Positions 5,845 to 21,761 are shown, numbered from the stretch's first letter. The stretch: 64,000 nt of DNA from a phage (GCA_018027755.1 GCA_018027755.1_4098.1), one strand, 5' to 3'. Numbers and translations: made by a program. The notes: generated by a model from the letters alone, not told the origin.

Positions 5845-5907
5845 AAAGTATTGACAGTACTGAAAGATAGTGTATAATGTTTTATATCTTAACTGAGGAT
5901 AGTAATC

Positions 5908-6531: not shown

Positions 6532-6538
6532 AAAGTAT

Positions 6539-6598: not shown

Positions 6599-6615
6599 AC
6601 TAAGAGGAAAGAAAA

Positions 6616-6828: not shown

Positions 6829-6845
6829 TATAAGGAGTACAGCTT

Positions 6846-7254: not shown

Positions 7255-7261
7255 AAATAAT

Positions 7262-7346
7262 TGAAAAAGGGATTGACACCGGTCAGTCCCTTTGCTATTA
7301 TATACGCATAGAAACAAATCAGCCCACAGGGTGCATAAATGTATCT
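7262..7346 (+). repeat. repeated intergenic element, copy 2
   Basis: TTGACA-17-TATTAT plus core AGCCCACAGGGTGCATAAATGTATC. Confidence 0.6.
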
Positions 7347-7569
7347 ATTGTTTGCTGGTGGCTAGTACTGAAAACTATTTTTAAAAAAGTACTTGCATTG
7401 TACTTAGAATCAAGTATAATGTTTTACATCAGGACGGGGAACGAAACAAGTAACCCCGTTAAGTAGTCCAGGAGTAAGACATACGAAAAACTCCCCTGAT
7501 AAAATAGTTTGACAATAGAAATTAAACGAGTATAATACTTACATCAACCACTGATAAGGAAACATAAAA

Positions 7570-7845
7570 ATGCGGATTCTACTGACAGCTAACGAAATCG
7601 AACAAGTACTGACTACTAACCTGGAAGACTGGAAACGTGAAGCAGATATCCAGGCGGTTCAATGGCTTAACGATAAGTTAACGCCGGATGACTTAAGCAA
7701 GATTGTAGATCCTCAATTCTACGAAGATATTCACGACACCGCGTTAAGCGTCGAGGATGTACTTGATAAGCACTACATTGATACTGATTTACATGTTTAC
7801 GGTCGTAAAAACTTTATCACTATTCACGACATTTACAATACTTAA
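7570..7845 (+). CDS. hypothetical protein (91 aa)
   Basis: track ORF; SD TAAGGAAA; promoter upstream. Confidence 0.7.
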   Translation: MRILLTANEIEQVLTTNLEDWKREADIQAVQWLNDKLTPDDLSKIVDPQFYEDIHDTALSVEDVLDKHYIDTDLHVYGRKNFITIHDIYNT

Positions 7846-7932
7846 GTATTGACAAAGTATCTTAGTACTGTATAATAGTTTACATCAAGGCGGGGAAATG
7901 GTTCCCCTCCTAACTAAAAGAGAGAAATTAAA

Positions 7933-8115
7933 ATGGCTAAGTGCACTATCTGTAAGAAAGAAATCGTATTAGTTCCAAGTGCCCGTGAACGTGCCGCTCG
8001 GTTCGGTGGCAAAGCGTCAGACTATACAAAAATGTTTACTGCCCATGCAGATTGCCAGGTAGCAAAACGTTCACAAGAAAGCGTAGAATTAATGCGTAAA
8101 CTTTCCAAAAAATAA
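7933..8115 (+). CDS. hypothetical small Cys-containing protein (60 aa)
   Basis: track ORF; promoter and hairpin upstream. Confidence 0.65.
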   Translation: MAKCTICKKEIVLVPSARERAARFGGKASDYTKMFTAHADCQVAKRSQESVELMRKLSKK

Positions 8116-8201
8116 GTATTGACAAAGTATCTTAGTACTGTATAATAGTTTACATCAAGTGAGGGGAAACGGTTCCCCTCCTAACAGAGAGAGAAATAAA
8201 A

Positions 8202-8525
8202 ATGGCTATGATCCTTACCCAGAAAGTGGAATTGAAAATTGTAACCTCCTTTGACATTAAAGTTAATCGCTGGACTGATCGGAACGGCAATACTTACCAC
8301 TCTTGCTACGTGTCTGCATTGATTGGTGATCGTTGGGAAGACCTGGGACACGAAACTTTTACATACGGTTACGGTACGCAAGGCGAATACACGGGCTTGG
8401 AGATCATTAAAGAAACCGTTATAGGTTTCAACCCGAAAGAAAAAGTTATTCACCGCATCGAAAAAGAGATTAACAAAGAAATAACAGTTCGCTACTACGA
8501 TGTAAAACGTAAGAAAGACATGTAA
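8202..8525 (+). CDS. hypothetical protein (107 aa), paralog of 1677 gene
   Basis: track ORF; shares GNTY...YGYG and DVKRKKD with 1677-2021. Confidence 0.7.
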   Translation: MAMILTQKVELKIVTSFDIKVNRWTDRNGNTYHSCYVSALIGDRWEDLGHETFTYGYGTQGEYTGLEIIKETVIGFNPKEKVIHRIEKEINKEITVRYYDVKRKKDM

Positions 8526-8620
8526 TAGAATCCATTTAAAGTACTATTTGACATTACACAGATAGTACTTTATAATAGACTCTAACTTGTAGTACTAACT
8601 CAACTAATAGGATGTATACC

Positions 8621-9016
8621 ATGATTACTAAATTCTACGCTACCCGTGAAGCTGCCCGTATTGTTGCACGCGAGGAAGGAGCAGCATTTAAAGACATGGG
8701 AACGACAGCACCGAAAGGTCAACGCTGGGCCGTACAGTTCAAAGAAATCTCTGATATTGTGAATTCACCTGAGCCAGTACTGACAGCAGCAGAACTAAAA
8801 CGAGCGGATATGCTGGCGGCAATACTTGACGCTCAAGATGAATTTATCGCTGATTCTGATATCAAAGTACAGGTAAACCACACCGCATGGACTCACGCGG
8901 ATCACCTGGCAAACCTTAAGCGTCCAAGTGAACTGATTCGCAACCAGAAAGAGATCCGACACGACCGTAAGGGTAATCGTGTAACAGTATACAGTAAACG
9001 CCGCCAGGTTATCTAA
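8621..9016 (+). CDS. hypothetical protein (131 aa)
   Basis: ATG with AGGA 8 nt upstream; track start 8612 alternative. Confidence 0.65.
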   Translation: MITKFYATREAARIVAREEGAAFKDMGTTAPKGQRWAVQFKEISDIVNSPEPVLTAAELKRADMLAAILDAQDEFIADSDIKVQVNHTAWTHADHLANLKRPSELIRNQKEIRHDRKGNRVTVYSKRRQVI

Positions 9017-9038
9017 TAACTTGCAGTACTAACAACAC

Positions 9039-9063
9039 GGCGGGATCAGTTCCCGCCTTTTTT
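9039..9063 (+). terminator. rho-independent terminator
   Basis: stem GGCGGGA/TCCCGCC then T-run. Confidence 0.8.
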
Positions 9064-9077
9064 ATAGGACAAACAAA

Positions 9078-9332
9078 ATGATTAAGGTTCAACTATATAA
9101 AGATAACATCTTACGGGTACACTATAAAGCACCGAAGAGAATCATCACAAAGGCCGTACAGCTTGCTAATGAGTTTATTAATGGTAACCTATTACCAAGG
9201 AAGTTAAGCAACGGGAAACTGCGTGTAATCGACGTGGACACTAACAACAGGATAGTAATCGAGAACACAGGAAAAATAAACCTTTATGAACACCAACAAT
9301 ATAATAAGAAAATAAAACTAATATCACGTTGA
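9078..9332 (+). CDS. hypothetical basic protein (84 aa)
   Basis: track ORF; weak SD. Confidence 0.5.
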   Translation: MIKVQLYKDNILRVHYKAPKRIITKAVQLANEFINGNLLPRKLSNGKLRVIDVDTNNRIVIENTGKINLYEHQQYNKKIKLISR

Positions 9333-9385
9333 CAGTACTCAAATGTTTTAGTACTATGTACACATACCAACACGGGAGAAACAAA

Positions 9386-9604
9386 ATGAAATTATCTAAA
9401 ATCGAAAAAACAACTATTGATGTAGCAGTTAAGCACGGTTATACCTTTCGTAATGATTCACATTTTACCAATTTTCAACAAGGACAGAGAACTATTAAAA
9501 AACTAATTGACAAAGGCTTATTAGTTAAAGTAGATAACGGTAACGGTGTGGAGTATCAACCAACACAGGACGCATTTTATTTTAAGAAATATAATATTAT
9601 CTAA
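9386..9604 (+). CDS. hypothetical protein (72 aa)
   Basis: ATG after GGGAGAAACAAA; promoter TTGACA-17-TACTAT at 9331; track ORF trimmed. Confidence 0.6.
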   Translation: MKLSKIEKTTIDVAVKHGYTFRNDSHFTNFQQGQRTIKKLIDKGLLVKVDNGNGVEYQPTQDAFYFKKYNII

Positions 9605-9662
9605 TTGACAGTACTCAAATGTTTTAGTACTATATGTACATACCAACACGGGGAAAAACAAA

Positions 9663-9905
9663 ATGATTACTTTAGAAAAACGTATCAAAGAAACTACATC
9701 GCTGGTGGAATTGTTAACAGTACTCAAATGTAAAACAACACCATTCAGCACGCCGGACTTTATTAATATGGTTGATGTTAATGGTCGCTATCGTATCACG
9801 GTCGAACAAGGAGCGGCGAAAGTATTCAGTACTAAAAACACTAAGGAAGTGATCCACGCCGTTAATGTTAAAAAAGTAGTTGCCATTGATAGTAAAGTAC
9901 TGTAA
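9663..9905 (+). CDS. hypothetical protein (80 aa)
   Basis: track ORF; duplicated copy of the 9331 promoter at 9604. Confidence 0.6.
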   Translation: MITLEKRIKETTSLVELLTVLKCKTTPFSTPDFINMVDVNGRYRITVEQGAAKVFSTKNTKEVIHAVNVKKVVAIDSKVL

Positions 9906-9936
9906 GATAGTTTCATTAACTCAAGGAGTAAATGCA

Positions 9937-10521
9937 ATGCGTAATTATACTAAATTCATCCGTACACTGTCAGAAATGGAAACCAACAAAGAGATCCTTT
10001 CAGCTTGTCGGTTAGCTGGCCTGGAGATCATCGGTGCTGGTTCTTCCCGTATAGTATTCGCTTTAAATGATCGGTTAGTGATTAAGGTCGCGAATTGTGA
10101 TGCGGGTGTCGAACAAAATGAAACTGAATGTAAGGTATGGAATTTTTTAGACTATGACCGCCCTCAGTTGAAACAGTACTTTGCAAAGGTGCATATGCAT
10201 TTATGCGATCCTGATAATATGTTTATCGTTATGGATCGGTTGAGTACTGCAAGCAAAGGCAGTGTGAAGCACGTTAACGCGTGCAATGAATTAAAGTACA
10301 ATATTAAACGTAATGCAATCGAACGCCAGCACCGCTTTGCTGATGCACTACAACACGTTGATGATACATTATCAACACTAACGATAAGAGATATCAGAAA
10401 ACAGAATATCGGCCAGGATCGTAATGGCCTTATTAAAGTACTTGATTACGGTTTAACCCGCAATATCTGGAATCAGTACTATAAAAAGCGTGATGTGGCA
10501 GCAAGTAAGGTAACACGATAA
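9937..10521 (+). CDS. Ser/Thr protein-kinase-like protein
   Basis: IGAGSSRIVF Gly-loop, VIKVA lysine, IRDIRKQNIG catalytic loop, LDYG (DFG-like); SD AAGGAG. Confidence 0.55.
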   Translation: MRNYTKFIRTLSEMETNKEILSACRLAGLEIIGAGSSRIVFALNDRLVIKVANCDAGVEQNETECKVWNFLDYDRPQLKQYFAKVHMHLCDPDNMFIVMDRLSTASKGSVKHVNACNELKYNIKRNAIERQHRFADALQHVDDTLSTLTIRDIRKQNIGQDRNGLIKVLDYGLTRNIWNQYYKKRDVAASKVTR

Positions 10522-10529
10522 AAAAGATT

Positions 10530-10620
10530 AAAAAAGGGATTGACTCCGGTCAGTCCCTTTGCTATTATATATCCATTGAGAGATAACTCACTGACCCATA
10601 GGGTGCGGAAGTGTATCTAT
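10530..10620 (+). repeat. repeated intergenic element, copy 3
   Basis: TTGACT-17-TATTAT plus conserved core. Confidence 0.6.
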
Positions 10621-10742
10621 TATATAAGTATTCAGTACTGAAAACTATTTTTAAAAAAGTACTTGCATTGTACTTAGAATCAAGTATAATGTTTTATATC
10701 GAGAGGGGGAAATGGTTCTCCCTGGCAATAAGGAATAAAATC

Positions 10743-10964
10743 ATGACTACAATGACTTGCATTTACGCTTCCAATCGTCTGAATGATGCGGCCTTTAATG
10801 TTGATTCAGAATATCAATGTTATCGGGATGAAAATAAAAAAGTTTTTGTAGTTGATAATAATGGTTTCCATATTGAATTACAATCCGGCTTCACTGGTGT
10901 TGATGGTAAATCAGTATGGGGCGTACAGGATGATAAAGGTACATATCATTTTAAACGTAATTAA
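10743..10964 (+). CDS. hypothetical protein (73 aa)
   Basis: ATG after TAAGGAATAAAATC; track ORF trimmed past hairpin. Confidence 0.65.
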   Translation: MTTMTCIYASNRLNDAAFNVDSEYQCYRDENKKVFVVDNNGFHIELQSGFTGVDGKSVWGVQDDKGTYHFKRN

Positions 10965-11048
10965 GTATTTGACAAAGTATCTTAGTACTGTATAATAGTT
11001 TACATCAAGGGGAGAATAGTTCTCCCCGATACTAAAAGGAATAAAATC

Positions 11049-11456
11049 ATGACTACTACCAATCAAGCTCGGAACATCACCAACGATAAAAATCATGCTG
11101 CAATGGTCGCTGGTTACATTGAAGCTATGCAATTCAGTACTGTACACAATGAGAACGGCGAATACCTGGAAGATTATGAATTATCAGAGCAAGCCCATCA
11201 AGCGGCAGTGATTGCATGTTCACGTTTCCTTGCTGTACATGGTGAAGATATGGAAACAGTACAAAAACACCATAATCCTGATTATACTTATAGTCATGCA
11301 GGTCATGATCTCTTTCTTACTCGCGAAGGTCACGGCACTGGTTTTTGGGATCGTGATATCGGTCACTATGATGATATATTCACTAAGTACTGCGAAGAAA
11401 TCAACGTTTGCGATCCCTATGTAGGCGATGATAATCTAATCTATATGGGCGAATAA
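11049..11456 (+). CDS. hypothetical protein (135 aa)
   Basis: track ORF; SD AAAGGAA; promoter and hairpin upstream. Confidence 0.7.
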   Translation: MTTTNQARNITNDKNHAAMVAGYIEAMQFSTVHNENGEYLEDYELSEQAHQAAVIACSRFLAVHGEDMETVQKHHNPDYTYSHAGHDLFLTREGHGTGFWDRDIGHYDDIFTKYCEEINVCDPYVGDDNLIYMGE

Positions 11457-11544
11457 AAGTATTTGACAAAGTATATCAGTACTGTATAATAGTTTACATC
11501 AAGGGGAGAATAGTTCTCCCCCACCAATAAAAGGAAACAAAATT

Positions 11545-11817
11545 ATGTCCAGCTACTCCGCTACTATGATCATTAAAGATATGAACGGTAATCCTACTTC
11601 TGCTGGTGGATCATTTGGAAACATTAATTTAGATGGGCGGTTATCCATGCAATCAGCCATCGATACAGCGAAAGAAGTTTTTAAGAATGAATGTACTGTA
11701 AGCAAGCTGGATTATATGGGATTCGCTATCGAGAAAACTAATCGTTTTGTGAACTACAAAAATCCACTGATGATTGATACTAACCTGAAAGCTAACGAAG
11801 TGGAATACTTATTATGA
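11545..11817 (+). CDS. hypothetical protein (90 aa)
   Basis: track ORF; SD AAAGGAAA. Confidence 0.7.
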   Translation: MSSYSATMIIKDMNGNPTSAGGSFGNINLDGRLSMQSAIDTAKEVFKNECTVSKLDYMGFAIEKTNRFVNYKNPLMIDTNLKANEVEYLL

Positions 11818-12005
11818 CAGTTGAAGAAGTTAAAAAAGTACTGGCAGTACTACGCTATCATAATCATTGCAAGGTGAAGAATGATCCTGATTATCTCGAT
11901 TCATCCCTGGAAGAGGATACACTACAAGCAATAAGCCATATGCAAAAAATGCTTAAGCGTATGACCGAAAAGAATAGACCGGACTATATCGGAAATAAAA
12001 TTTAA
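11814..12005 (+). CDS. hypothetical protein (63 aa)
   Basis: track ORF; ATGA overlap with upstream gene. Confidence 0.6.
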   Translation: MTVEEVKKVLAVLRYHNHCKVKNDPDYLDSSLEEDTLQAISHMQKMLKRMTEKNRPDYIGNKI

Positions 12006-12091
12006 AAAGTACTTGCATTGTAGTTAGATTAACGTATAATGTTTTATATCGAGAGGGGAAATGGTTTCCCCTCAAGTCCAGGAGATACACC

Positions 12092-12355
12092 ATGAACACT
12101 ATCGAAATCACTATCAATGCACACGTATACGACAACGTAGTACTGCAAACTACTATGACCGCTAATGATACCAGTACTTTGCGGAATACTGTTATTAGTG
12201 CCGTATGTGCTGCAATCGGTGATGTTGCCCTGGAAAATGCAGAACATATCAACAACGGTTTCACTATGTGCAAACGTGATAACGCAAAACATATCATCGT
12301 GGAAGGTTACGGCGGTGTAGAATTTAATGTTTATATGAAAAAAGTATTTGCATAA
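12092..12355 (+). CDS. hypothetical protein (87 aa)
   Basis: track ORF; SD CAGGAGA. Confidence 0.7.
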   Translation: MNTIEITINAHVYDNVVLQTTMTANDTSTLRNTVISAVCAAIGDVALENAEHINNGFTMCKRDNAKHIIVEGYGGVEFNVYMKKVFA

Positions 12356-12422
12356 TAACTAAAACAAAGTATAATGTTTTGCATAGGGGGAGATATCCTC
12401 CCCCACTAAAAGGAGTAATAAA

Positions 12423-12647
12423 ATGGCTAACTTTGATGAACTGATGCGGGAAGTAGCTACCCTGGCAGAAGAGAAGAAATCATTCGATTCTATCTATAAC
12501 ACCTCTTACCGTGATTCAGTACTGGCATGTACTCAGGATCAAAAAGATGAACTAATCGCCACATATCATGAAGCATGGAAGTACTACCGCCAATGGGAGA
12601 AAGAAGAAAGCGAGTCTACCATCAACGGCATCAATAATCTAATCTAA
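12423..12647 (+). CDS. hypothetical protein (74 aa)
   Basis: track ORF; SD AAAGGAG. Confidence 0.7.
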   Translation: MANFDELMREVATLAEEKKSFDSIYNTSYRDSVLACTQDQKDELIATYHEAWKYYRQWEKEESESTINGINNLI

Positions 12648-12723
12648 AAGTTTTATTTCAGTACTATTGACATAGCTTGATAGTACTGATGTAATAACTT
12701 TACTAACTACAAGGGGAAACATA

Positions 12724-12981
12724 ATGGAACAGTTCACACAATATCGGGTAAATCCTCAAGCTATGGCCTACGTAGAAGACCATAAAACGTTACCAGTACT
12801 GCAACCAGTTAAAGGCCATATCTATCGTGCAATGTCGTGGAGTACGGCCCAGGATGGCTATAAAACCGTAGCTGTCGGTATGTACTGCGGTAATGGTGAA
12901 TGGTTTGATCCAAATAATCCGGTCGCCGTTGACAGTACTGAAAAAATGAAATGGGCCGACTACATCGAAGATATTTCATAA
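12724..12981 (+). CDS. hypothetical protein (85 aa)
   Basis: track ORF; repeated promoter type upstream. Confidence 0.65.
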   Translation: MEQFTQYRVNPQAMAYVEDHKTLPVLQPVKGHIYRAMSWSTAQDGYKTVAVGMYCGNGEWFDPNNPVAVDSTEKMKWADYIEDIS

Positions 12982-13071
12982 AAACTATTTGACAGTACTA
13001 ACCAGTAATGTATAATGTTTTACATAGAGCGGGGGAATAGTTCTCCCGCCAATAGTTTGGAGTAAAACATT

Positions 13072-13272
13072 ATGTCTATCGCTATCGCCCTGGTTGAAGT
13101 ACTGAAAGAAGCTAAAGCCAACCTTATCGATGTACAGATTAAGGAATTGCAAAACGGCTTAATCGGCTGCACTTGTACCGCTGGCGGTGCGGCAGACTAT
13201 CGAGAACACGAATCACTCGAATCACTGGTTCGGTATCTTACCATGATCGTTGATGATTGGAGAATCATCTAA
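13072..13272 (+). CDS. hypothetical protein (66 aa)
   Basis: track ORF; SD TGGAGT. Confidence 0.65.
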   Translation: MSIAIALVEVLKEAKANLIDVQIKELQNGLIGCTCTAGGAADYREHESLESLVRYLTMIVDDWRII

Positions 13273-13284
13273 CAAAAAAAGAAT

Positions 13285-13370
13285 AAAAAAAGGGATTGAC
13301 TCCGGTCAGTCCCTTTGCTATTATATACGCATAGACAAAAACTAGCCCACAGGGTGCATAAGTGTATCCA
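13285..13370 (+). repeat. repeated intergenic element, copy 4
   Basis: TTGACT-17-TATTAT plus core AGCCCACAGGGTGCATAAGTGTATC. Confidence 0.6.
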
Positions 13371-13519
13371 AAATATATAGTTAATAACGGTGAGTAACTA
13401 TCTGCTGGTGGAGTGAAAACTATTAATAAAAAAAGTATTGACAAAGTATATCAGTACTGCGATAATGTATCTCGTAGGGCGGCAATGGTGCGACGGCCCA
13501 CAAAGTTAGGAGATTCAAA

Positions 13520-13852
13520 ATGACTACTTCAATCGCTATCGTTAAAGCTTTCATCCGTACTAATGTTTCCTCTGTATTCATCGACGGCCTCGACCGTAAC
13601 GTAGAATACTCAATCATTATCGCACAAACGGCAAACGGTTCTCGGTACATCCTTAATGATAGTGAAGCAAATCACTACTACTTCACTAAAGCCACTGGCT
13701 TTAAACGCATCGATGCTGATGTAGTATACGCTAAGATGAATAAGCTGGTAGATAAGATTAACGCTAAAGGTACTATAGATTTACAGTACTGGACCGAAAC
13801 CGATCCAGAATATGGATCTCACCGCTACCTGAATCCAGGTATTAAAATGTAA
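13520..13852 (+). CDS. hypothetical protein (110 aa)
   Basis: track ORF; SD TAGGAGA. Confidence 0.7.
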   Translation: MTTSIAIVKAFIRTNVSSVFIDGLDRNVEYSIIIAQTANGSRYILNDSEANHYYFTKATGFKRIDADVVYAKMNKLVDKINAKGTIDLQYWTETDPEYGSHRYLNPGIKM

Positions 13853-13941
13853 AAAGTACTTGCATAGTACTTAGAATCAAGTATAATGTTTTACATAGAG
13901 AGGGGGAAATGGTTCTCCCTCCTAAATTAAGGAGTTTTATC

Positions 13942-14343
13942 ATGACCTTCTCAATCAATTCCTTCGCTGACGTTTTAGTACTGGCTCGGACTTTCGGTAA
14001 AGATGCACTGGAGTACGCTGTAAGTAATGGTACTATCCAACCGGAACAGTGCCGCATCATTGGAAACTGCAAACGTTGGGCGGTATCCAATACTATTGCA
14101 CTGGAAAACTTCCACGATGGCAACAATGAATATTCTGTTGATGTAGTATTCGAAGCCGTTGATCTCGGCGGTATCTATAATACTAACCTGAATGATGTGC
14201 GTATCGTTCGCACGGGGTTCGGTGCTTATGATGTATCTATTCGTGAAGCTATGAACACCGGATACATTAGCAAGGACTTACTTGCTCACATCATGCAGCT
14301 GTGTACGGAACGTAACGAAGCACGTACTATCTTAGGGCTGTAA
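13942..14343 (+). CDS. hypothetical protein (133 aa)
   Basis: ATG after TAAGGAG SD; track ORF trimmed. Confidence 0.7.
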   Translation: MTFSINSFADVLVLARTFGKDALEYAVSNGTIQPEQCRIIGNCKRWAVSNTIALENFHDGNNEYSVDVVFEAVDLGGIYNTNLNDVRIVRTGFGAYDVSIREAMNTGYISKDLLAHIMQLCTERNEARTILGL

Positions 14344-14368
14344 GCAATACACATCACCAAACATCATA

Positions 14369-14388
14369 GGCCGCTCTCTAGCGGCCTT
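14369..14388 (+). terminator. terminator-like hairpin
   Basis: stem GGCCGC/GCGGCC; weak U-tract. Confidence 0.4.
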
Positions 14389-14411
14389 AACTATATCAGG
14401 AGGGCATACAT

Positions 14412-14621
14412 ATGTTCTATACAGTATACAGCGTTCTAGGCACTATTGCAGGCGTACATGATAACGTCAATGATGCTATGCGTACAGTACTGCAACAGGT
14501 TCCACTAAAGCCTAAGACCATTAAGCAGATGACAGCACGACTAACCAGGGCGACCGATGGCGTGGAAGTATGGCAGGACTACGGGGATACACAGATAATC
14601 GTAAGCGTAACGAAGGATTAA
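14412..14621 (+). CDS. hypothetical protein (69 aa)
   Basis: track ORF; SD AGGAGG. Confidence 0.7.
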   Translation: MFYTVYSVLGTIAGVHDNVNDAMRTVLQQVPLKPKTIKQMTARLTRATDGVEVWQDYGDTQIIVSVTKD

Positions 14622-14655
14622 TGCGTAAAGGGATCTAGTACTGATTCAGAAAAAA

Positions 14656-14721
14656 GTCAAGGCGTTTTTAAAATTATGCGTTAAAAAAATGCATAGGTAA
14701 TCCCTTGACTTTTTTGAAATA
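14656..14721. repeat. 13-bp inverted repeat with 40-nt loop at module boundary
   Basis: AAAAAAGTCAAGG...CCTTGACTTTTTT; lies at compositional shift. Confidence 0.5.
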
Positions 14722-14871
14722 AAAGGGATTGGACTATGGCAAAATGCGTAGGGGGCTAAAGGGCGGGTAACCTTAGCGACTTCGATAAAGGGGTATTACG
14801 AATAAAATGTTATTGATTTTTTATACGAATCGTATATTATAGGATTGATATTATTTTTTAATGGAGTCCCT

Positions 14872-15069
14872 ATGCGTATTTTAACTAAAGAACAGCACCA
14901 CGAAAGACTTATCAATAACATGGCTATGATAATGTATAAGTCCCATGACCGTGGTATTGCCTATAAGCGTGAATTAATTATGGCACTATTCATTGGAACT
15001 AACTTTCAGGAAAGGTATGTCAACGATTGGATTTGGTATTTAATTGAAGATATAACGAGTAAACTATGA
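14872..15069 (+). CDS. Fam-A paralog 1
   Basis: C-terminal IGTNFQERYV motif; SD GGAG; first gene of array. Confidence 0.65.
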   Translation: MRILTKEQHHERLINNMAMIMYKSHDRGIAYKRELIMALFIGTNFQERYVNDWIWYLIEDITSKL

Positions 15070-15266
15070 AAATGCGTATTTTAAATAAAGAAGAATATCA
15101 ATCACTGTTACGTAAAAACTTCACAAAGATTTATAATACAGACACACACGTAGAACGAATGGAGTTATACCTTTTGATTACTTTGGGAACTAACTATCAG
15201 GAAAGATGGGTGATTCAATATATGGATACATTGAAAAATAAAATATTGTCCACGAGGAAACAATGA
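15066..15266 (+). CDS. Fam-A paralog 2
   Basis: LGTNYQERWV motif; ATGA overlap. Confidence 0.65.
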   Translation: MKMRILNKEEYQSLLRKNFTKIYNTDTHVERMELYLLITLGTNYQERWVIQYMDTLKNKILSTRKQ

Positions 15267-15472
15267 AAACTATAACACGAACCCAATCATACGGTCTTAT
15301 CTTGAAATACATGGACTTAATGGTGGATATCAGCAAAGACCTTCCTAAAACTGAAATTGAAGTTGCAAGAGCAGAGATCCGCATGTTGGCTGTACTGAAC
15401 ACAAACCATCAGGAAGATTATGTTGAAGAATGGATTCGATTTTTAATTCAAGATATAAAGAGTAAATTATGA
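15263..15472 (+). CDS. Fam-A paralog 3
   Basis: LNTNHQEDYV motif; ATGA overlap. Confidence 0.65.
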   Translation: MKTITRTQSYGLILKYMDLMVDISKDLPKTEIEVARAEIRMLAVLNTNHQEDYVEEWIRFLIQDIKSKL

Positions 15473-15684
15473 TTATTATAGAAAACTCATATCAATATAC
15501 TGAACGCATCGCTGCCAGACAACTTGAAATCCTCATAATATACGAAGAGACTTCTGATTTAAACTTAGCCGAGGTATTGGAAAATGATATACTATTGGGT
15601 GCATTCTTAGGAACAGACTATCAGAAGTATTATGAGGAAAAGTATTTGTCATCTCTTGAGAAATATATCAGGAGCAAATTATGA
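15469..15684 (+). CDS. Fam-A paralog 4
   Basis: LGTDYQKYYE motif; ATGA overlap. Confidence 0.65.
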   Translation: MIIIENSYQYTERIAARQLEILIIYEETSDLNLAEVLENDILLGAFLGTDYQKYYEEKYLSSLEKYIRSKL

Positions 15685-15893
15685 TTTTTTTAACACCAGA
15701 AGAATATAAGAAACGTTTCAATTCCGCACAGGGTGAAATCTTACTTATATACCTTTCAAATGCAGACCTTAACTTATCAAGGGTATTAGAAAAAGATTTA
15801 CTTATGGGTGCATTCCTTGATACAGACTTTCAGGTGTATTATGTAGGGGAATACTTAATTGCACTTCAGAATTATATCAGGAGTAAACTATGA
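15681..15893 (+). CDS. Fam-A paralog 5
   Basis: LDTDFQVYYV motif; ATGA overlap. Confidence 0.65.
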   Translation: MIFLTPEEYKKRFNSAQGEILLIYLSNADLNLSRVLEKDLLMGAFLDTDFQVYYVGEYLIALQNYIRSKL

Positions 15894-16117
15894 AACATTT
15901 AAGTAACTCCGAGAAGAATAAAATTATCGTTGCTGCAATAAACAAATATTTTACACTTCCTCACAAAGAAGGTTTATGTGTAAGGGAACACAGGATAAAC
16001 ACCACCGATAAACGCATGATGGCTGTACTGGGGACGAACTTCCAGGAAGAGTATGTTATTGCACACATAGTTGCACTCAAGAATTACATTATGGACAAAT
16101 GTAATGAACATCATTAA
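15890..16117 (+). CDS. Fam-A paralog 6
   Basis: LGTNFQEEYV motif; ATGA overlap. Confidence 0.65.
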   Translation: MKHLSNSEKNKIIVAAINKYFTLPHKEGLCVREHRINTTDKRMMAVLGTNFQEEYVIAHIVALKNYIMDKCNEHH

Positions 16118-16328
16118 TAACTTTGAATACGAGGCCCGTGCTAAGAGTGCCAGAAAAAAAGAGAACACCATTTACTTCACTATGATGTACTTACAATGGA
16201 CTGAAATTGAAGAAAAGGTTGCTGAAGTATGGATGTTGGAATTCATGGGGACGCAGTATCAGAATAGGTTTGCGGGTGAGTATATCAATGTTCTTATGAA
16301 ACAAATAGAAAGAAAGGAAAAGAACTAA
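16104..16328 (+). CDS. Fam-A paralog 7
   Basis: MGTQYQNRFA motif; internal ATG chosen (track start 16071). Confidence 0.6.
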   Translation: MNIINNFEYEARAKSARKKENTIYFTMMYLQWTEIEEKVAEVWMLEFMGTQYQNRFAGEYINVLMKQIERKEKN

Positions 16329-16486
16329 TGGTTTTCATTAACATATCTGACCAACTCGATACTAAACTAGAAGTCGAGCAGAGTGAGGGAGGGATGTTGT
16401 ACTTTCTTGGAACTTCTCATCAGAATTTTTATATCCATGAACACATAGTTGCACTCACAAATCTAATAAGGGATAAATGTAAATGA
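16328..16486 (+). CDS. Fam-A paralog 8 (52 aa)
   Basis: LGTSHQNFYI motif; below track cutoff; overlaps neighbours by 1 and 4 nt. Confidence 0.55.
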   Translation: MVFINISDQLDTKLEVEQSEGGMLYFLGTSHQNFYIHEHIVALTNLIRDKCK

Positions 16487-16740
16487 AACACTTGACGAAC
16501 GATGAATATTCACTTAGAATTCGAAAGCTCACCCCAGAAGCAAGAGTAATCTACGATGACGATGCACTTTCATGGAACGAGATGAAAGTTAAAGTTCATG
16601 AGCTATGGTTGCTGTACTTTGTGGGAACCCAATATCAAGAGAAATATTGTACCGATTATCTTGAACAACTAATGGATCTTATACAGATAAAACTAAATGA
16701 ACGAATTGTGGAAAAATATGAAAACTTTATCAAGCACTGA
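16483..16740 (+). CDS. Fam-A paralog 9
   Basis: VGTQYQEKYC motif; ATGA overlap. Confidence 0.65.
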   Translation: MKHLTNDEYSLRIRKLTPEARVIYDDDALSWNEMKVKVHELWLLYFVGTQYQEKYCTDYLEQLMDLIQIKLNERIVEKYENFIKH

Positions 16741-16969
16741 GTATCAAACTGCCCTCTTCTCCCTTCTAAACACCCTCCGCACGAACAATAAACTTTATAA
16801 TTCCCGTGAAGCTGATATCGTCAACGCTGATGTATATCTTAATAAATTCATAGGGACTAACTATCAAGAACTGTTCACTCTACGATATATCGCTGCATTG
16901 AGAAACGAAATATCAGATAAAACCCGTCAAGCCAGAAGAGAATGGAATAAACAATGCGACACAGACTAA
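16718..16969 (+). CDS. Fam-A paralog 10
   Basis: IGTNYQELFT motif; internal ATG chosen (track 16697). Confidence 0.6.
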   Translation: MKTLSSTEYQTALFSLLNTLRTNNKLYNSREADIVNADVYLNKFIGTNYQELFTLRYIAALRNEISDKTRQARREWNKQCDTD

Positions 16970-17205
16970 ATCACAAAATGTATTGTAAACTATTACAGAC
17001 ACTGGCACAGAAACACTATGACACGGTATCTGGAATATTACCCTATGATATCATGCGTTTACTTCACTGTGAGGCCGAGATGCTTGTACTGATGACTGGC
17101 ACAGATAAAAACGCAATTGCCAAATCTATAGATATGTTCATCGATGCACACTGCCAACACATTAGAACCGAGATATGGAGACGTGAGAATGAAAATCCTG
17201 ACTGA
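16954..17205 (+). CDS. Fam-A paralog 11 (divergent)
   Basis: MTGTDKNAIA in motif position; overlaps neighbour. Confidence 0.55.
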   Translation: MRHRLNHKMYCKLLQTLAQKHYDTVSGILPYDIMRLLHCEAEMLVLMTGTDKNAIAKSIDMFIDAHCQHIRTEIWRRENENPD

Positions 17206-17404
17206 GCATGAGTATTACAATAGGTTAAGAACTATACAAGGAAAAGTCTCGTGGACTTTTTTAGATAATTCTATTGCAGAAGCGGACCGATGTGTTATAA
17301 TAGCTGAAATGAAGCTATTACTCTTCATTGGGACAAACTATCAAAGTATCTACATAGACGCATGGTTAAGCAGCTTACGTCTGAAGTCGGTGAGTTTAAA
17401 ATGA
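17189..17404 (+). CDS. Fam-A paralog 12
   Basis: IGTNYQSIYI motif; internal ATG chosen (track 17144). Confidence 0.6.
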   Translation: MKILTEHEYYNRLRTIQGKVSWTFLDNSIAEADRCVIIAEMKLLLFIGTNYQSIYIDAWLSSLRLKSVSLK

Positions 17405-17619
17405 GAAAATTAATAGGTTTCGAATATGTTAAGCTTCTACAAACCTGTGGAATCAGAAGGAGAATGATTCAAAAGGATAAAAAAATTGCCGAAGAACGAA
17501 AGTATATAATGATAACTGAACTTTATGTCTTAACACTCTTAGGCACAAACTATCAACACACTTATGTAGACCTATGGATCGATGCACTACAGAAAGAGGT
17601 TAAAAGTAAATGCAAATGA
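17401..17619 (+). CDS. Fam-A paralog 13
   Basis: LGTNYQHTYV motif; ATGA overlap (track 17362). Confidence 0.6.
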   Translation: MRKLIGFEYVKLLQTCGIRRRMIQKDKKIAEERKYIMITELYVLTLLGTNYQHTYVDLWIDALQKEVKSKCK

Positions 17620-17828
17620 TTAATTTAAGTAAAGATGAATATTATGAACGTCTTGCAAAAACTTATCCAGCACGTAACGCCGTTTATAATAGTAACATTA
17701 TTGAACGCTCAAAGAAGTTGATTGTAGTAAATGAGATTAAGATGCTTTCAGTCTTAGGAACAAACTATCAAGAGAATGCTGTACTGTTGTTAATTGATGC
17801 CCTCCAGAGAGAGATACAAAGTAAATGA
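17610..17828 (+). CDS. Fam-A paralog 14
   Basis: LGTNYQENAV motif; N-terminus MQMINLSKDEY. Confidence 0.65.
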   Translation: MQMINLSKDEYYERLAKTYPARNAVYNSNIIERSKKLIVVNEIKMLSVLGTNYQENAVLLLIDALQREIQSK

Positions 17829-18073
17829 TTCATTTATCTTACCATGATTATCAAAAACGTTTAAATGCATCAAGGGATATAAGGATTCAAATCTTCAATA
17901 ACAAAAAATTGAAACCTGACACCAGAAGAATCAAAATGATAGAAGCAGAGTTATGCAACTTCCTGGGGACGAACTATCAGGCAGGTAAGGTAAAAAACTA
18001 TCTTAGAGAACTAATGATTTGTATCGAAAATAAATGTGAGGTTGATGAACATGCAAATGATCAATTTAAGTAA
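17825..18073 (+). CDS. Fam-A paralog 15
   Basis: LGTNYQAGKV motif; ATGA overlap. Confidence 0.65.
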   Translation: MIHLSYHDYQKRLNASRDIRIQIFNNKKLKPDTRRIKMIEAELCNFLGTNYQAGKVKNYLRELMICIENKCEVDEHANDQFK

Positions 18074-18314
18074 AGATGAATATACCGAGCGTATGACAAA
18101 AATTACGCACAAACGTAATACAATCTATCACAACCCAGAAATCCAACACAGTAAGAAAATGATTATGATGCGTGAGTTAAAGATGGGTGTATTCTTAGGA
18201 ACAAACTATCAAGATACAGAAGTAAATCGCTTAATCGCGGAGTTACTACTGGAAATCAGAGGTAAGCTGTACTTTCATCAAATGACCCAACCACTGAGGT
18301 GTACTGATCGATGA
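18051..18314 (+). CDS. Fam-A paralog 16
   Basis: LGTNYQDTEV motif; N-terminus MQMINLSKDEY; start uncertain (track 18036). Confidence 0.6.
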   Translation: MQMINLSKDEYTERMTKITHKRNTIYHNPEIQHSKKMIMMRELKMGVFLGTNYQDTEVNRLIAELLLEIRGKLYFHQMTQPLRCTDR

Positions 18315-18562
18315 ATGCGATGAATATTGTGAATAACATCAGATTAGCAGAAAGATTTGATAGAATTGGGGAAGCACTGAGAAGATACGATAAAGAATAT
18401 GGTCATTTGAGCTTTTCTATAGAAAAGAGATATGAACTTGAAGCAGAGTTTAAAATGCAGAGTCTCTTAGGCACACAGTATCAAAACCAATATATTCAAA
18501 CTTGGATTGATTGTTTAATCCAGACAATTTACGTAAGAAACATTAAATGCAAAATGAAATGA
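18311..18562 (+). CDS. Fam-A paralog 17
   Basis: LGTQYQNQYI motif; ATGA overlap. Confidence 0.65.
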   Translation: MNAMNIVNNIRLAERFDRIGEALRRYDKEYGHLSFSIEKRYELEAEFKMQSLLGTQYQNQYIQTWIDCLIQTIYVRNIKCKMK

Positions 18563-18807
18563 TATACTTAACCTATAATGAATACGTCGAGAGATTAGTT
18601 CGTGCCAAGAGATATACCAATAAACGTCCAATTGACCTAAACCAAACCCCAGCAGAAAGGAGTGCAGAAGTATTATTCCAATCACTACCATATCTTCTGG
18701 GAACTGATAGACAAGAGGAATATGTTGCACGTATGATTAGATATCTTAAAATCACTATTAAGGAAAAAGTAAATGCAAATGCAAATGAAATACTTAACAG
18801 ACGATGA
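18559..18807 (+). CDS. Fam-A paralog 18
   Basis: LGTDRQEEYV motif; ATGA overlap (track 18547). Confidence 0.6.
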   Translation: MIYLTYNEYVERLVRAKRYTNKRPIDLNQTPAERSAEVLFQSLPYLLGTDRQEEYVARMIRYLKITIKEKVNANANEILNRR

Positions 18808-19030
18808 GTTAAAAGAACGACTAATTAAATCCAGAAAACTTACAAATCAACTTCCAAACGACACAAACAAGTCACATGCCGAAAGGAGTGCAGAAGTTTT
18901 ATACATTCAACTCATGTACTTTCTTGGAACTGACAGACAAGAGTATTACATTGAAAGTATGCTTCGATATCTTAAATTCTCTATAAAGGAAAAGATACAT
19001 GCTCAAGAATTTAAAAATCCTAACAGTTAA
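18785..19030 (+). CDS. Fam-A paralog 19
   Basis: LGTDRQEYYI motif; start uncertain (track 18773). Confidence 0.6.
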   Translation: MKYLTDDELKERLIKSRKLTNQLPNDTNKSHAERSAEVLYIQLMYFLGTDRQEYYIESMLRYLKFSIKEKIHAQEFKNPNS

Positions 19031-19256
19031 TGAATATCATACGATTGTAATGAAAACTAATAGTGAAATTTCTAAAAAATCAAACCCAAAGTACATACTG
19101 GAACACACATTCGAAGAACGCCAATTAGCTCTAGTTGAAGCAAAACTTCTTGCACTCCTAGGAACAAACTATCAGGAAGAATACATCAGAAAACTAATAT
19201 ACCTTTTAACTAAACACATCAGGAAAAGAAAAAAGCATGAAGCACTTGACAGATGA
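18999..19256 (+). CDS. Fam-A paralog 20
   Basis: LGTNYQEEYI motif; overlaps upstream gene. Confidence 0.6.
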   Translation: MLKNLKILTVNEYHTIVMKTNSEISKKSNPKYILEHTFEERQLALVEAKLLALLGTNYQEEYIRKLIYLLTKHIRKRKKHEALDR

Positions 19257-19467
19257 TGAACATGGGCTTATAGTAATGGATGTAATCAACATCGAATACA
19301 AAAAGTTGATACGCTACCGTTGTTATGAAGATAAGCAACTCGTTCTAGCAGAACAGAAGTTGTTTCGACTCTTAAACACAAACTTCCAAGCACAATACGA
19401 AGAATCGTATATGTACCTTTTGGCGAGGAAAGCAAAAAGAGATTATGAAAATTTTAAGCAAAGGTGA
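19237..19467 (+). CDS. Fam-A paralog 21
   Basis: LNTNFQAQYE motif; overlaps upstream gene. Confidence 0.6.
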   Translation: MKHLTDDEHGLIVMDVINIEYKKLIRYRCYEDKQLVLAEQKLFRLLNTNFQAQYEESYMYLLARKAKRDYENFKQR

Positions 19468-19660
19468 TTCAGTAATATTACTTATAGAGAGTTCAAGTAA
19501 ATTCTTAAACATAACACTGTCTGATATAGATGAAGATGACAAAGAAGTACTGAGAGCAGATTTAAGAGTACTGTTACATATCGGAACAAACCTACAAGAA
19601 GAATATGTAGAGTGCTACATCAATGAACTTAAAGAATTAGTACTGAGAAAATGCAAATGA
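19445..19660 (+). CDS. Fam-A paralog 22
   Basis: IGTNLQEEYV motif; overlaps upstream gene. Confidence 0.6.
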   Translation: MKILSKGDSVILLIESSSKFLNITLSDIDEDDKEVLRADLRVLLHIGTNLQEEYVECYINELKELVLRKCK

Positions 19661-19878
19661 AAATCATTACCGATGCAGAATACCTAACAATCATAAATGG
19701 ACTGTTTTTGAAGCTCTTCGTCATTAACACATCAGATATACCAGATATGGATAAAATTATTAAGAGAAATGAAGTCTATGTTCTAGCTACCCTTGGAACG
19801 AACTATCAAGAACACGACATTAAAGATTATATTAATACACTTAAACGAGCGATTGAACTAAAATGCCAAAACCACTAG
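19657..19878 (+). CDS. Fam-A paralog 23
   Basis: LGTNYQEHDI motif; ATGA overlap (track 19651). Confidence 0.6.
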   Translation: MKIITDAEYLTIINGLFLKLFVINTSDIPDMDKIIKRNEVYVLATLGTNYQEHDIKDYINTLKRAIELKCQNH

Positions 19879-20078
19879 GAACAGCAGAATACATTGAACT
19901 AATGGGATTACACTTCTCATCCTTTCAGAAACTTATGCGAGAATCAAAGAATGATTTAGAATATACCATCAGAGGTTCCGATTTAAGAATGCTTCTCACC
20001 CTAGACACAGATTCCCAAGAGCGATTTGTCAATGAGCATATTAGAGCACTTTTAATGGAAATTCAAAGTAAACTATGA
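19863..20078 (+). CDS. Fam-A paralog 24
   Basis: LDTDSQERFV motif; overlaps upstream gene. Confidence 0.6.
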   Translation: MPKPLGTAEYIELMGLHFSSFQKLMRESKNDLEYTIRGSDLRMLLTLDTDSQERFVNEHIRALLMEIQSKL

Positions 20079-20290
20079 AGGTAATATCAAATCAAGAGTA
20101 CTTGGCACTATTCAGGAAGAATAATCACAAATATATGGCACTTGATTCAAGAACTGATATAAGTGAACTTGAAAAAAATCTTTTGCGTTCAGATATGATA
20201 GTACTGACACTCTTAGGAACACAGCATCAAGAGAGAACTGTTAATTCACACATAGAAATACTTAAGAAGCTTATACAGGAAAAGTTATGA
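20075..20290 (+). CDS. Fam-A paralog 25
   Basis: LGTQHQERTV motif; ATGA overlap. Confidence 0.65.
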   Translation: MKVISNQEYLALFRKNNHKYMALDSRTDISELEKNLLRSDMIVLTLLGTQHQERTVNSHIEILKKLIQEKL

Positions 20291-20508
20291 GAATCATAAC
20301 ACAACAAGATATTCTTAAGTTCACAAGGGTTCATGCATCTGAATTTGATGCTATATTATCAAAAAGTTACAACAACCCTTATACACAAGATGTACACTAC
20401 AATGAATTATGGGTGTATATACTTTTAGGTACAGATCATCAAGAGCAAGCAGTACAGAAGTATTTGTTAGCTTTACGTGATGCTACTGCTAATGGAGTAC
20501 GTGTTTAA
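20287..20508 (+). CDS. Fam-A paralog 26
   Basis: LGTDHQEQAV motif; ATGA overlap. Confidence 0.65.
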   Translation: MRIITQQDILKFTRVHASEFDAILSKSYNNPYTQDVHYNELWVYILLGTDHQEQAVQKYLLALRDATANGVRV

Positions 20509-20509
20509 T

Positions 20510-20752
20510 ATGAAAGTACTGACAGAACTAGAAATGTATCATAGATTTAATAAGTACTATCATTTACTTAAGCCTATACAGAGGATTAAATGTCCATTTG
20601 AAGAGAAACAGGTTTTAATCTATGAGCACAAGTTCTTTGTATCATTAGGTACAGATCAACAAGAGTACTATTTGACGTTGTACTTGATTACATTAATAGA
20701 TTTAATTTACTATAAAACCAAACAAGCTAATAAAGAGAAATATGAAAACTAA
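20510..20752 (+). CDS. Fam-A paralog 27
   Basis: LGTDQQEYYL motif; ATG 2 nt after upstream stop (track 20477). Confidence 0.6.
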   Translation: MKVLTELEMYHRFNKYYHLLKPIQRIKCPFEEKQVLIYEHKFFVSLGTDQQEYYLTLYLITLIDLIYYKTKQANKEKYEN

Positions 20753-21086
20753 TATACAACTCAAGGTATATAAATCATTTGAACATACATATATCAAAAG
20801 TAGTCTATGTAGAGATGTAATGGATTACAAGGGTAAGCCATTCACAATTACTTATGATTCTTATGTTGATGATTTATATATATCATTTGTTAATTACGAA
20901 AATAAAATATACAAGCACGTTGATATTAAAGATTTAAGTACTTTATCTGAAGAGGAATACTTTCAGGAATCATTAGTATGGGATTTAGAGTTTCCTATGC
21001 CATTAGTACATAAGATGATAGTACTAATGAAAGAATCTAAACAGGAGCCTAATGGTGATTATGAAGAACACACAGTTGAGTATTAA
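20742..21086 (+). CDS. Fam-B paralog
   Basis: motif EEEYFQESLVWD; overlaps upstream gene. Confidence 0.65.
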   Translation: MKTNIQLKVYKSFEHTYIKSSLCRDVMDYKGKPFTITYDSYVDDLYISFVNYENKIYKHVDIKDLSTLSEEEYFQESLVWDLEFPMPLVHKMIVLMKESKQEPNGDYEEHTVEY

Positions 21087-21456
21087 AAGTACTGATAATA
21101 TTAAGAGTTATACAAGCTCAAGTACTGTGACAATCGAAGTGAATTCTATTAATGCTGGTAATGCAGTAGATAAGTTCTTTATTGCTCAAGGGTACAGGAA
21201 AGATATTCATCAATATTGTTCAGTATATGGGGAGTACAATAGTACTGAAGATATAATTTATTGGTCAACACATCAAGATTATCTAACTAAAATTGGAGTC
21301 CCAGATGTTAGTACTTTATCTGAAGAAGAATACTTTCAGTACAGCTTAATATGTGATGTACCTATACCTTTAGGGTTAATCAAGGGTATACAGGAAGAGG
21401 TTCATAAGCTTAAATCCATGAGTAAAGGTACTTTCATTAGAACAGTGCAATACTAG
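21061..21456 (+). CDS. Fam-B paralog
   Basis: motif EEEYFQYSLICD; start approximate (track 21052). Confidence 0.6.
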   Translation: MKNTQLSIKSTDNIKSYTSSSTVTIEVNSINAGNAVDKFFIAQGYRKDIHQYCSVYGEYNSTEDIIYWSTHQDYLTKIGVPDVSTLSEEEYFQYSLICDVPIPLGLIKGIQEEVHKLKSMSKGTFIRTVQY

Positions 21457-21515
21457 CTTGACAGTACTTTTCATTACTGATATAGTACACTAACGTTAAT
21501 CATAGGGTAAAAATT

Positions 21516-21761
21516 ATGTTAAATTTTTTAAATTTCCTTATCGTTTTGTGTATTGTTCTTGGGATTGCACCATTTGTATTGTATTTCATGGATTCAGATG
21601 AAATGCAGAAGATGAATTGCACAAGGACAGGACAGAGTAGAGAAGAGACGATTCTTATGCCTGTTACGGTTATTGTTAACAACATGCCCATTACAAACAT
21701 GGTCCCTACCCTAACGACAACGTACCAGTACTCTTGTGCTGACGGAGAGAGGTGGAGATGA
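21516..21761 (+). CDS. hypothetical protein with N-terminal TM helix (81 aa)
   Basis: track ORF; TTGACA-17-TATAGT promoter upstream. Confidence 0.5.
   Translation: MLNFLNFLIVLCIVLGIAPFVLYFMDSDEMQKMNCTRTGQSREETILMPVTVIVNNMPITNMVPTLTTTYQYSCADGERWR

Follow-up and report, generated by a model that had tools for sequence, protein, structure and literature searches.

A tandem array of 27 small paralogous genes, which we refer to as Fam-A, occupies positions 14872 to 20752 on the + strand of a 64,000-nucleotide stretch of phage DNA (GCA_018027755.1_4098.1; the whole of this stretch is referred to as the window). The genes are consecutive, with nothing between them. This arrangement had been proposed in an earlier, sequence-only reading of the window, and it was borne out by a listing of open reading frames (ORFs), by inspection of start codons and by a family hidden Markov model (HMM). 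The HMM was built from our own alignment and used to search the 965 ORFs found in the six frames of the window; precisely 31 of them match, all on the + strand, with E-values of 4e-15 to 4e-27, while the next best ORF reaches only E 0.68. The array accounts for 27 of these (E about 1e-16 to 1e-27), and four members lie outside it: A28 (22053-22271, 72 amino acids, with a TTG start; E 2e-18), A29 (22241-22507, 88 amino acids; E 5e-16), A30 (34581-34799, 72 amino acids; E 4e-15) and A31 (34777-34968, 63 amino acids; E 1.4e-17). Beyond the array and these four dispersed members, no other frame or strand among the 965 ORFs matches the model.

The members of the array are numbered in order along the + strand, and are given here with their coordinates, length in amino acids and HMM E-value in brackets. 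The first two are A01 (14872-15069, 65, 4e-18) and A02 (15072-15266, 64, 3e-19; alternative start at 15066). These are followed by four genes that are each entered through an ATGA junction: A03 (15263-15472, 69, 1e-22), A04 (15469-15684, 71, 2e-16), which has 53% identity to its neighbor A05 (15681-15893, 70, 1e-19), and A06 (15890-16117, 75, 6e-25). A07 (16104-16328, 74, 4e-23) and A08 (16328-16486, 52, 3e-17), the latter without the N-terminal helix, form a segment that varies among related phages, as described below. A09 (16483-16740, 85, 4e-27) has the best HMM score of the family; it precedes A10 (16718-16969, 83, 2e-18; ORF opening at 16697) and A11 (16954-17205, 83, 3e-16), which the alignment identifies as the most divergent copy, with Q52 lost and an insertion in the loop. 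The central part of the array comprises A12 (17189-17404, 71, 1e-22; ORF opening at 17144), A13 (17401-17619, 72, 3e-23; ORF opening at 17362), A14 (17616-17828, 70, 1.5e-23; alternative start at 17610), which is the member chosen for structural modeling, A15 (17825-18073, 82, 1.5e-23), A16 (18057-18314, 85, 6e-24; alternative starts at 18045 and 18051), with 51% identity to A14, A17 (18320-18562, 80, 5e-19; alternative start at 18311), A18 (18559-18807, 82, 2e-21; alternative start at 18547) and A19 (18785-19030, 81, 2e-22; alternative start at 18773), with 52% identity to A18. The remaining genes are A20 (18999-19256, 85, 7e-21), A21 (19237-19467, 76, 7e-16), A22 (19445-19660, 71, 1e-20), A23 (19657-19878, 73, 3.5e-23; alternative start at 19651), A24 (19863-20078, 71, 7e-20), A25 (20075-20290, 71, 4.5e-23) and A26 (20287-20508, 73, 1.5e-20), both with ATGA junctions, and A27 (20510-20752, 80, 1e-20; ORF opening at 20477), the last of the contiguous series.

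The proteins of the array are 52-85 amino acids long with homology-supported starts, or 52-92 amino acids if the first start codon of each ORF is used. At each of the 26 junctions, neighboring genes either overlap or are separated by no more than 5 nucleotides, in agreement with the initial description of mostly ATGA or short-overlap junctions: there are twelve ATGA overlaps, one overlap of a single base (TAATG), nine overlaps of 14-32 nucleotides and four gaps of 1-5 nucleotides. The consensus of the family is MKILTNDEYYKRL...ELKLLAFLGTNYQEEYVEEYIRALKKEIKSKL. The N- and C-terminal motifs that had been described for the family are present, in a looser form than first stated. At the N-terminus, M1 is followed by K/R at position 2 in 19 of 27 sequences, L/I4 in 25/28, T/S5 in 19/28, E8 in 18/28 and Y9 in 18/29. 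In the C-terminal half, conservation is seen at L47 (23/31), G48 (27/31), T49 (30/31), N/D50 (23/31), Q52 (30/31) and L63 (30/31), with E53 (19/31), I67 (26/30) and K70 (21/28) among the further conserved positions.

The source of the window is an Asteriusvirus jumbo coliphage of the PBECO4/121Q/G17 group. A megablast search with positions 14800-20800 matched 36 phage records, all of them jumbo phages of Escherichia or Salmonella, 310-386 kb in size and assigned to the genus Asteriusvirus, among them PBECO4, 121Q, G17, phAPEC6, Sharanji and CRJP21. CRJP21 is the top match (94.9% identity, 100% query cover), and every gene under the match is annotated as a 'hypothetical protein'. The same phages also match the first 14 kb of the window. 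The array starts just after a compositional boundary that the earlier reading had put at a drop in GC content from about 42 to about 30 percent; the boundary is real, with 42.9% GC in the 1 kb before it and 33.0% in the first 1 kb of the array, and the value of 30 percent is slightly low, since the array as a whole has 33.9% GC. In the record of phage vB_Ec-M-J, 'Direct Terminal Repeats' are annotated at 1..21525 and the first family gene begins at 21624. The end of this direct terminal repeat (DTR) aligns at about position 14772 of the window, 100 bp ahead of the first ATG of the array, and the compositional boundary is therefore identified with the inner end of the left DTR, placed at 14772 by this homology. 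DTRs in the range of 20.7-21.5 kb have been reported for Sharanji (PMC11895373) and for fEgEco12 and vB_Ec-M-J (PMC13070987), and the repeat of fEgEco12 was confirmed by restriction digests (PMC13070987). In Asteriusvirus, the array is thus located in the unique region, 100 bp in, directly after the left DTR.

Positions 1-14772 of the window constitute the inner part of this DTR of about 21 kb. Its small genes are spaced 60-100 bp apart, with a near-consensus sigma-70 promoter in nearly every intergenic gap, a layout wholly unlike the overlapping arrangement that follows 14872. A DksA-like zinc-finger protein is annotated in records of related phages, within the part that matches positions 1-14000 of the window, and we take the cysteine-rich ORF at 5587-5844, judged by its sequence alone, to be its probable counterpart. 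In a metagenome contig from a sister Asteriusvirus (ERZ15610127 NODE_65; L008 917-1174 and 4203-4457), DTR genes have precomputed matches to the Pfam families zf-dskA_traR and ParE_like.

The non-coding sequence that separates the last gene of the DTR from the first gene of the family (14622-14871, + strand) is conserved at 97% mean column identity among six phages, more than the genes that flank it. It holds a AATCCCTT/AAGGGATT hairpin and several AAAGGG motifs, and may hold a signal for the end of the repeat or for packaging. A candidate sigma-70-type promoter for the array, TTGATT-16-TATTAT, lies within it at 14813-14840 (+ strand); it was identified by its match to the consensus (9/12 in the window) and ends 32 nucleotides upstream of the ATG at 14872, with a GGAG Shine-Dalgarno sequence following. 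The candidate is conserved among the six phages: the -35 element is TTGACT (5/6) in four of the five sister phages and TTGATT in UB, and the -10 element is TATTAT or TAAAAT. The + strand of the 13.5-kb DTR part contains 19 matches to TTGACA-N16-18-TATAAT with no more than one mismatch, eleven of them perfect with a spacer of 16 or 17, compared with only about 11 near-consensus sites in the following 49 kb. The position of the array is one expected of early host-takeover operons: it adjoins both the terminal redundancy and this upstream cluster of near-consensus promoters.

A scan of the array itself found no convincing intrinsic terminator and no perfect promoter. The overlapping junctions, the lack of a convincing internal terminator and the conserved candidate promoter together fit one long early mRNA with coupled translation, and the sequence is consistent with a single polycistronic unit of this kind. 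The array's one near-consensus sigma-70 site, which matches at 11/12 positions (19246-19274), was rejected as a functional promoter, because its -35 element is simply the conserved L-T codon pair (TTG ACA) at the start of a gene; a sigma-70-like -35 at 16492-16520 likewise arises from N-terminal L-T codons (TTG ACG) and is probably a coding coincidence. Within the DTR, a 38-nucleotide element, AAAGGGATTGAC(A/T)CCGGTCAGTCCCTTTGCTATTATAT, occurs three times (7266-7303, 10533-10570 and 13289-13326), with zero copies expected by chance and the copies differing only at the A/T position. It forms a 12-bp stem-loop with a TTGAC(A/T) -35 hexamer in the 5' arm and a TATTAT -10 after it, and may act as terminator and promoter at once, or as a promoter under regulation. 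In PA5oct, a member of the RaK2-like clade, most genes in the long DTR are highly transcribed early genes and the host RNA polymerase is used (PMC7318152). In phage CBB, RpoD-like promoters, which reach onto the terminal repeat, cluster before short hypothetical ORFs for which an early role in host takeover is suspected (PMC5259590).

AlphaFold2 modeling of A14 from the alignment of the 31 paralogs yielded a compact helical bundle with a predicted local distance difference test score (pLDDT) of 97.8 and a predicted template modeling score (pTM) of 0.83. The helices of the model span residues 6-15/17-25 (a single kinked helix), 31-45 and 52-69, and a beta-bridge connects residue 2 to T49. The conserved columns of the alignment comprise core positions together with E8, E40, T49, N/D50, Q52 and E53, while surface columns have an entropy above 3 bits. 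Mapped onto the model, the conserved N-terminal strand, E8, E40 and the L-G-T-N-Y-Q-E loop appear to share one pole of a three-helix-type bundle, at which the N-terminal M-K-x-L-T strand would be docked onto the loop, alongside E8 and E40. The G-T-x-x-Q motif looks like a helix C-cap followed by an N-capping box. A hydrophobic core and one pole are common to all copies, and nearly every surface position varies between them. The proteins are soluble, with 0-3 cysteines each and isoelectric points (pI) from 4.4 to 9.8; the pI exceeds 8 in 18 of the 31 members, and seven are acidic.

The family corresponds to phrog_4148, its sole match to a known family and an entry of 'unknown function' in PHROGs: five members tested match it with E 6e-21 to 7e-24, from profile position 1 to 66-73 of 74. 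Searches of Pfam gave only sub-threshold noise, with nothing above the curated cut-offs, and PADLOC likewise returned noise only. A sequence-profile search of the PDB gave no match, Foldseek found no match in the PDB at E <= 0.001, and against BFVD it recovered only the family's own members. No similarity in sequence or fold to characterized inhibitors (anti-CRISPR proteins, Ocr-like proteins and others) was found. There was also no recognizable DNA-binding domain, the Pfam and PDB profile searches being negative and the fold searches containing no helix-turn-helix protein.

The resemblance between the copies lies in their proteins. Tandem Repeats Finder (TRF) detected no repeat of unit length in 14000-23000, and a repeat finder recovers only motif-coding stretches of 31-62 nucleotides with 60-85% identity. 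The mean pairwise protein identity is 25% and the maximum 53%. Between orthologues in five sister phages, the ratio of nonsynonymous to synonymous substitution rates (dN/dS) is 0.34-0.40 over 1,621-1,995 codons. The paralogy at the protein level that the earlier reading had assumed is supported by these results. The corresponding dN/dS values are 0.11-0.18 for the eight DTR genes just upstream and 0.23-0.41 for downstream non-family genes, so that the array has two to three times the dN/dS of the DTR genes. When substitutions were pooled by HMM column, with dual-coding codons excluded, dN/dS was 0.22 at columns conserved between paralogs and 0.46 at columns that vary between paralogs; the variable columns contain 833 nonsynonymous and 420 synonymous differences, at a 4:1 ratio of sites. 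These values are indicative of purifying selection both on the shared scaffold and on each copy's own sequence, which argues against junk DNA. Positive selection at the variable columns was considered and dropped, their pooled value of 0.46 not being above 1.

The copies are old. For the closest paralog pairs (A04/A05, A18/A19 and A14/A16; 51-53% identity) the synonymous divergence (dS) is 0.86-1.42, and other pairs are saturated, whereas dS between orthologues among the sampled phages is only 0.08-0.23. As paralog dS far exceeds orthologue dS, all the duplications took place long before the sampled Asteriusvirus species separated. Copies that are neighbors resemble each other more closely than do non-adjacent copies (0.295 compared with 0.248 identity; permutation p < 5e-5), which fits local duplication. 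Copy-number variation in related phages, a check suggested with the first description of the array, was found, with 23 to about 30 copies in the main array, arising through gains and losses of whole genes. Over eight genomes (CMSTMSU was excluded, as its record is marked UNVERIFIED and has fragmented ORFs), there are 23 copies in 121Q, 26 in vB_Ec-M-J, 27 in the window and in UB, 28 in phAPEC6, about 29 in CRJP21 and in the metagenome contig, and about 30 in G17. In each of the phages examined, none of the copies is broken. The stretch carrying A07 and A08 (16108-16438) is missing from vB_Ec-M-J, phAPEC6 and UB; this indel is flanked by 45-nucleotide direct repeats at 16060-16104 and 16438-16482, which code for the C-termini of A06 and A08. 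An additional unit is present near 18.0-18.2 kb in CRJP21 and G17. The array is also mosaic, with genes that are 100% identical to a given phage adjoining genes that are only 57-75% identical to that phage: amino acid identity falls below 80% in 34 of 135 gene-by-phage comparisons within the array, but in none of 40 for the upstream DTR genes.

When the HMM was searched exhaustively against 1.84 billion representatives, only 103 clusters matched, and all named matching clusters belong to Asteriusvirus or to the Klebsiella phages RaK2, K64-1, KP13-7 and RCIP0023. No phages other than the RaK2-like ones of Escherichia, Salmonella and Klebsiella were seen to carry the family. In RCIP0023 at least 13 members, none of which is a clear one-to-one orthologue of any copy in the window, are scattered singly or in groups of up to three over about 18 kb. 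The presence of members in both groups indicates that the family predates the split of Asteriusvirus and the Klebsiella RaK2-like phages, and the single contiguous block is the Asteriusvirus arrangement. Rare fusions of Fam-A domains were found as a 269-amino-acid form in UB and a 121-amino-acid form in RaK2 and K64-1. The UB protein (AXC36995.1; L006 10439-11248) has an extra C-terminal domain of about 200 amino acids; RCIP0023 has fusions at L007 6486-6851 (equivalent to RaK2_00362 and K64-1 gp484) and 10163-10510, each with about 50 extra amino acids at the C-terminus. The fused forms were dropped as a clue to function, as the extra domains have neither a Pfam or PHROG annotation nor a homologue in the window.

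The region downstream of the array contains further paralogous genes; simple BLAST clustering places 54 of the 164 + strand genes of the window in paralog groups. A second family, the 'EEELFQESLVWD' family, has at least ten proteins of 100-135 amino acids between 20742 and 39462, with an invariant F-Q in the motif (S/T)LSEEE(L/Y)FQ(E/Y)SLVWD; examples are found at 20742-21086, 21052-21456, 21752-22078, 23752-24063, 33002-33316, 36117-36479, 36825-37166, 38703-39065 and 39049-39462. Common descent of this family with Fam-A through a Y/F-Q-E motif was considered and rejected (hhalign probability 0.1%). Two more paralog families occur at 30681-39953 and 56759-58168, comprising nine proteins of 147-186 amino acids (for example, those that begin MSLQSALKEAKKIH...) and five tandem proteins of 88-103 amino acids.

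Tandem arrays in these phages were already known. Hua et al. mention a large tandem array in phage 121Q, a sister Asteriusvirus, in a single sentence, together with an array in phage G (Hua et al., 2017, mBio, PMC5646251). The phAPEC6 paper repeats the point (PMC7247149), and about 10% of RaK2 gene products have been described as paralogues (PMC3622015). The array referred to by Hua et al. is probably the locus studied here, which in 121Q corresponds to genes 319-341; the 23 members that we count there and the identity of only about 25% between copies make this match less than certain. Their mention gives no coordinates, family definition or analysis. Our literature search found no study that defines or analyses Fam-A, and the PHROGs entry phrog_4148 describes the same family without function, array structure or position. 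New here are the position at the DTR junction, the fold, the selection regime, the age and the pattern of copy gain and loss. The sequence-only reading had also lacked the identity of the boundary as the inner DTR end, the members outside the array and the brief prior mention in 121Q.

The array has the traits of a lineage-specific tandem expansion: a head-to-tail series on one strand, a signal of local duplication and restriction to one phage lineage. A parallel in kind is the lineage-specific expansion of about 35 zinc ribbons in Bacillus phage G, likewise a jumbo phage with dozens of copies of a small domain for which diversified specificities have been proposed (Iyer et al., 2021, PMC7824862); these were suggested to be transcription factors or structural DNA-binding proteins (PMC7824862). 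The zinc ribbon is a different fold from the cysteine-poor helical bundle of Fam-A, and there is no sequence relationship.

A second likeness is to host-takeover modules, which in phages SPO1 (gp37-60) and T5 (the pre-early genes) lie in or beside the terminal redundancies. These modules and the DTR genes of PA5oct (PMC7318152) resemble the array in being packed small genes at a genome end near strong host-type promoters; they differ in consisting of unrelated genes with demonstrated early timing, whereas Fam-A is one paralogous family just outside the DTR for which early timing is proposed.

In the 'genomic accordion' of poxviruses, amplification of K3L gives recent, near-identical copies. 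The Fam-A array is similar in being a tandem array whose copy number varies between close relatives by unequal recombination, but even its closest pairs have only about 50% protein identity and dS of 0.9-1.4. Recent accordion amplification was rejected on these grounds.

Taken together, these results establish with high confidence that the array is a real and old tandem gene family under purifying selection, whose products share a small helical scaffold with conserved core and pole and varying surface, and that it has an operon-like organization at the junction of the DTR and the unique region. The explanation that we favor is that host RNA polymerase would transcribe the array early in infection, starting at the conserved sigma-70-like candidate promoter, with or without read-through from the promoter-dense DTR, to give one polycistronic mRNA of about 5.9 kb, whose translation would be coupled across the ATGA and overlap junctions. 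The Fam-A proteins would form a repertoire of small binders on one scaffold, each specialized for a different host or host-defense target and serving host takeover or counter-defense, and the repertoire would be renewed by unequal crossing-over of neighbors and by exchange of cassettes between co-infecting phages. Early expression by host RNA polymerase we hold with moderate confidence, and the specialization of copies as binders of different host or defense targets with lower confidence; as a whole, early operon and diversified binder repertoire together, this is our best explanation and a tentative one, nearly as apt to hold as to fail.

Several observations weigh against it. The duplications, with paralog dS from 0.9 to saturation, do not represent a fast-responding amplification. 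The candidate array promoter matches the consensus at only 9-10 of 12 positions across the phages. A literature search found no Asteriusvirus transcriptome or infected-cell proteome, and early timing, polycistronic transcript and translation are all features that we infer. In no column class does dN/dS exceed 1, so that the positive selection that would mark an arms race is not seen. A pole that is conserved while the rest varies also fits other roles equally well, such as subunits docking on one common partner.

This last role is the first alternative to be weighed: the copies may be interchangeable subunits or adaptors that dock by the conserved pole on one phage-encoded partner, and could then confer specificity, act as chaperones for the region's other paralog families, or provide superinfection exclusion or immunity, instead of binding targets in the host. 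That the conserved residues cluster at one pole, as judged from the topology, points to an interaction common to the copies; four members lie among other paralog families, at 22 kb and 34.6 kb, and fusions to other domains occur in UB and RaK2/K64-1. Against this, genes of a second family are not regularly paired with Fam-A genes inside the main array, nothing homologous to the fused domains occurs in the window, and Fam-A is unrelated to the 'EEELFQESLVWD' family, so we regard this alternative as improbable while still giving it some weight. We are more doubtful that the proteins are small nucleic-acid-binding regulators or DNA-architectural proteins, a parallel to the phage G zinc ribbons, for which Iyer et al. 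propose such a role (PMC7824862). Their small size, helical fold, location beside the probable early region and frequently basic pI would suit this function, but the range of pI, with its seven acidic members, and the mainly acidic or neutral character of the conserved polar residues (E8, E40, T49, N50, Q52 and E53) would not.

It is quite unlikely that the array is genome filler, that is, by-products of tandem duplication without individual function that are tolerated in a roomier capsid, according to the capsid-ratchet idea of Hua et al., who cite the 121Q array as genome growth by duplication (PMC5646251). The elevated dN/dS relative to the neighboring DTR genes and the spread in copy number from 23 to 30 are as this idea would predict; set against them are the intactness of all copies in every phage examined despite duplications with dS of at least 0.9, the dN/dS of 0.46 even at the most paralog-variable columns, and the retention of at least 13 members in a separate RaK2-like group, the Klebsiella phages. 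Finally, a DNA-level repeat with a cis function in packaging, replication or recombination and with incidental ORFs, as might be imagined from units every 210-260 bp or so beginning 100 bp from the DTR end, is rejected as contradicted by the absence of a TRF unit repeat, the restriction of similarity to motif-coding stretches of 31-62 nucleotides, synonymous sites near saturation between copies that keep the fold, and dN/dS well below 1.

RaK2-like jumbo phages are in development for therapy, and more than 80% of their genes have no known function; Fam-A makes up about 5% of the genes of an Asteriusvirus. With the array placed exactly where the DTR meets the unique region, transcripts can be mapped from a well-defined reference point. 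If the copies are dispensable filler, they would directly support the capsid-ratchet view of jumbo genome growth. If, as we favor, they are early diversified binders, they would amount to an existing collection of about 30 small and well-folded proteins that inhibit E. coli functions or defense systems. The broadest form of this proposal is speculative, and we think it more probably wrong than right by a wide measure: that some 30 variants of a miniature scaffold, with a shared docking pole and differing, individually conserved surfaces, jointly neutralize many host defense or housekeeping targets at the start of infection, their cassettes shuffled between phages, as a long-lived family of gene gain and loss that would be a viral counterpart of multigene receptor families. 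Should the copies prove to be binders, the array would offer a tractable case of the maintenance of a multigene repertoire by a virus.

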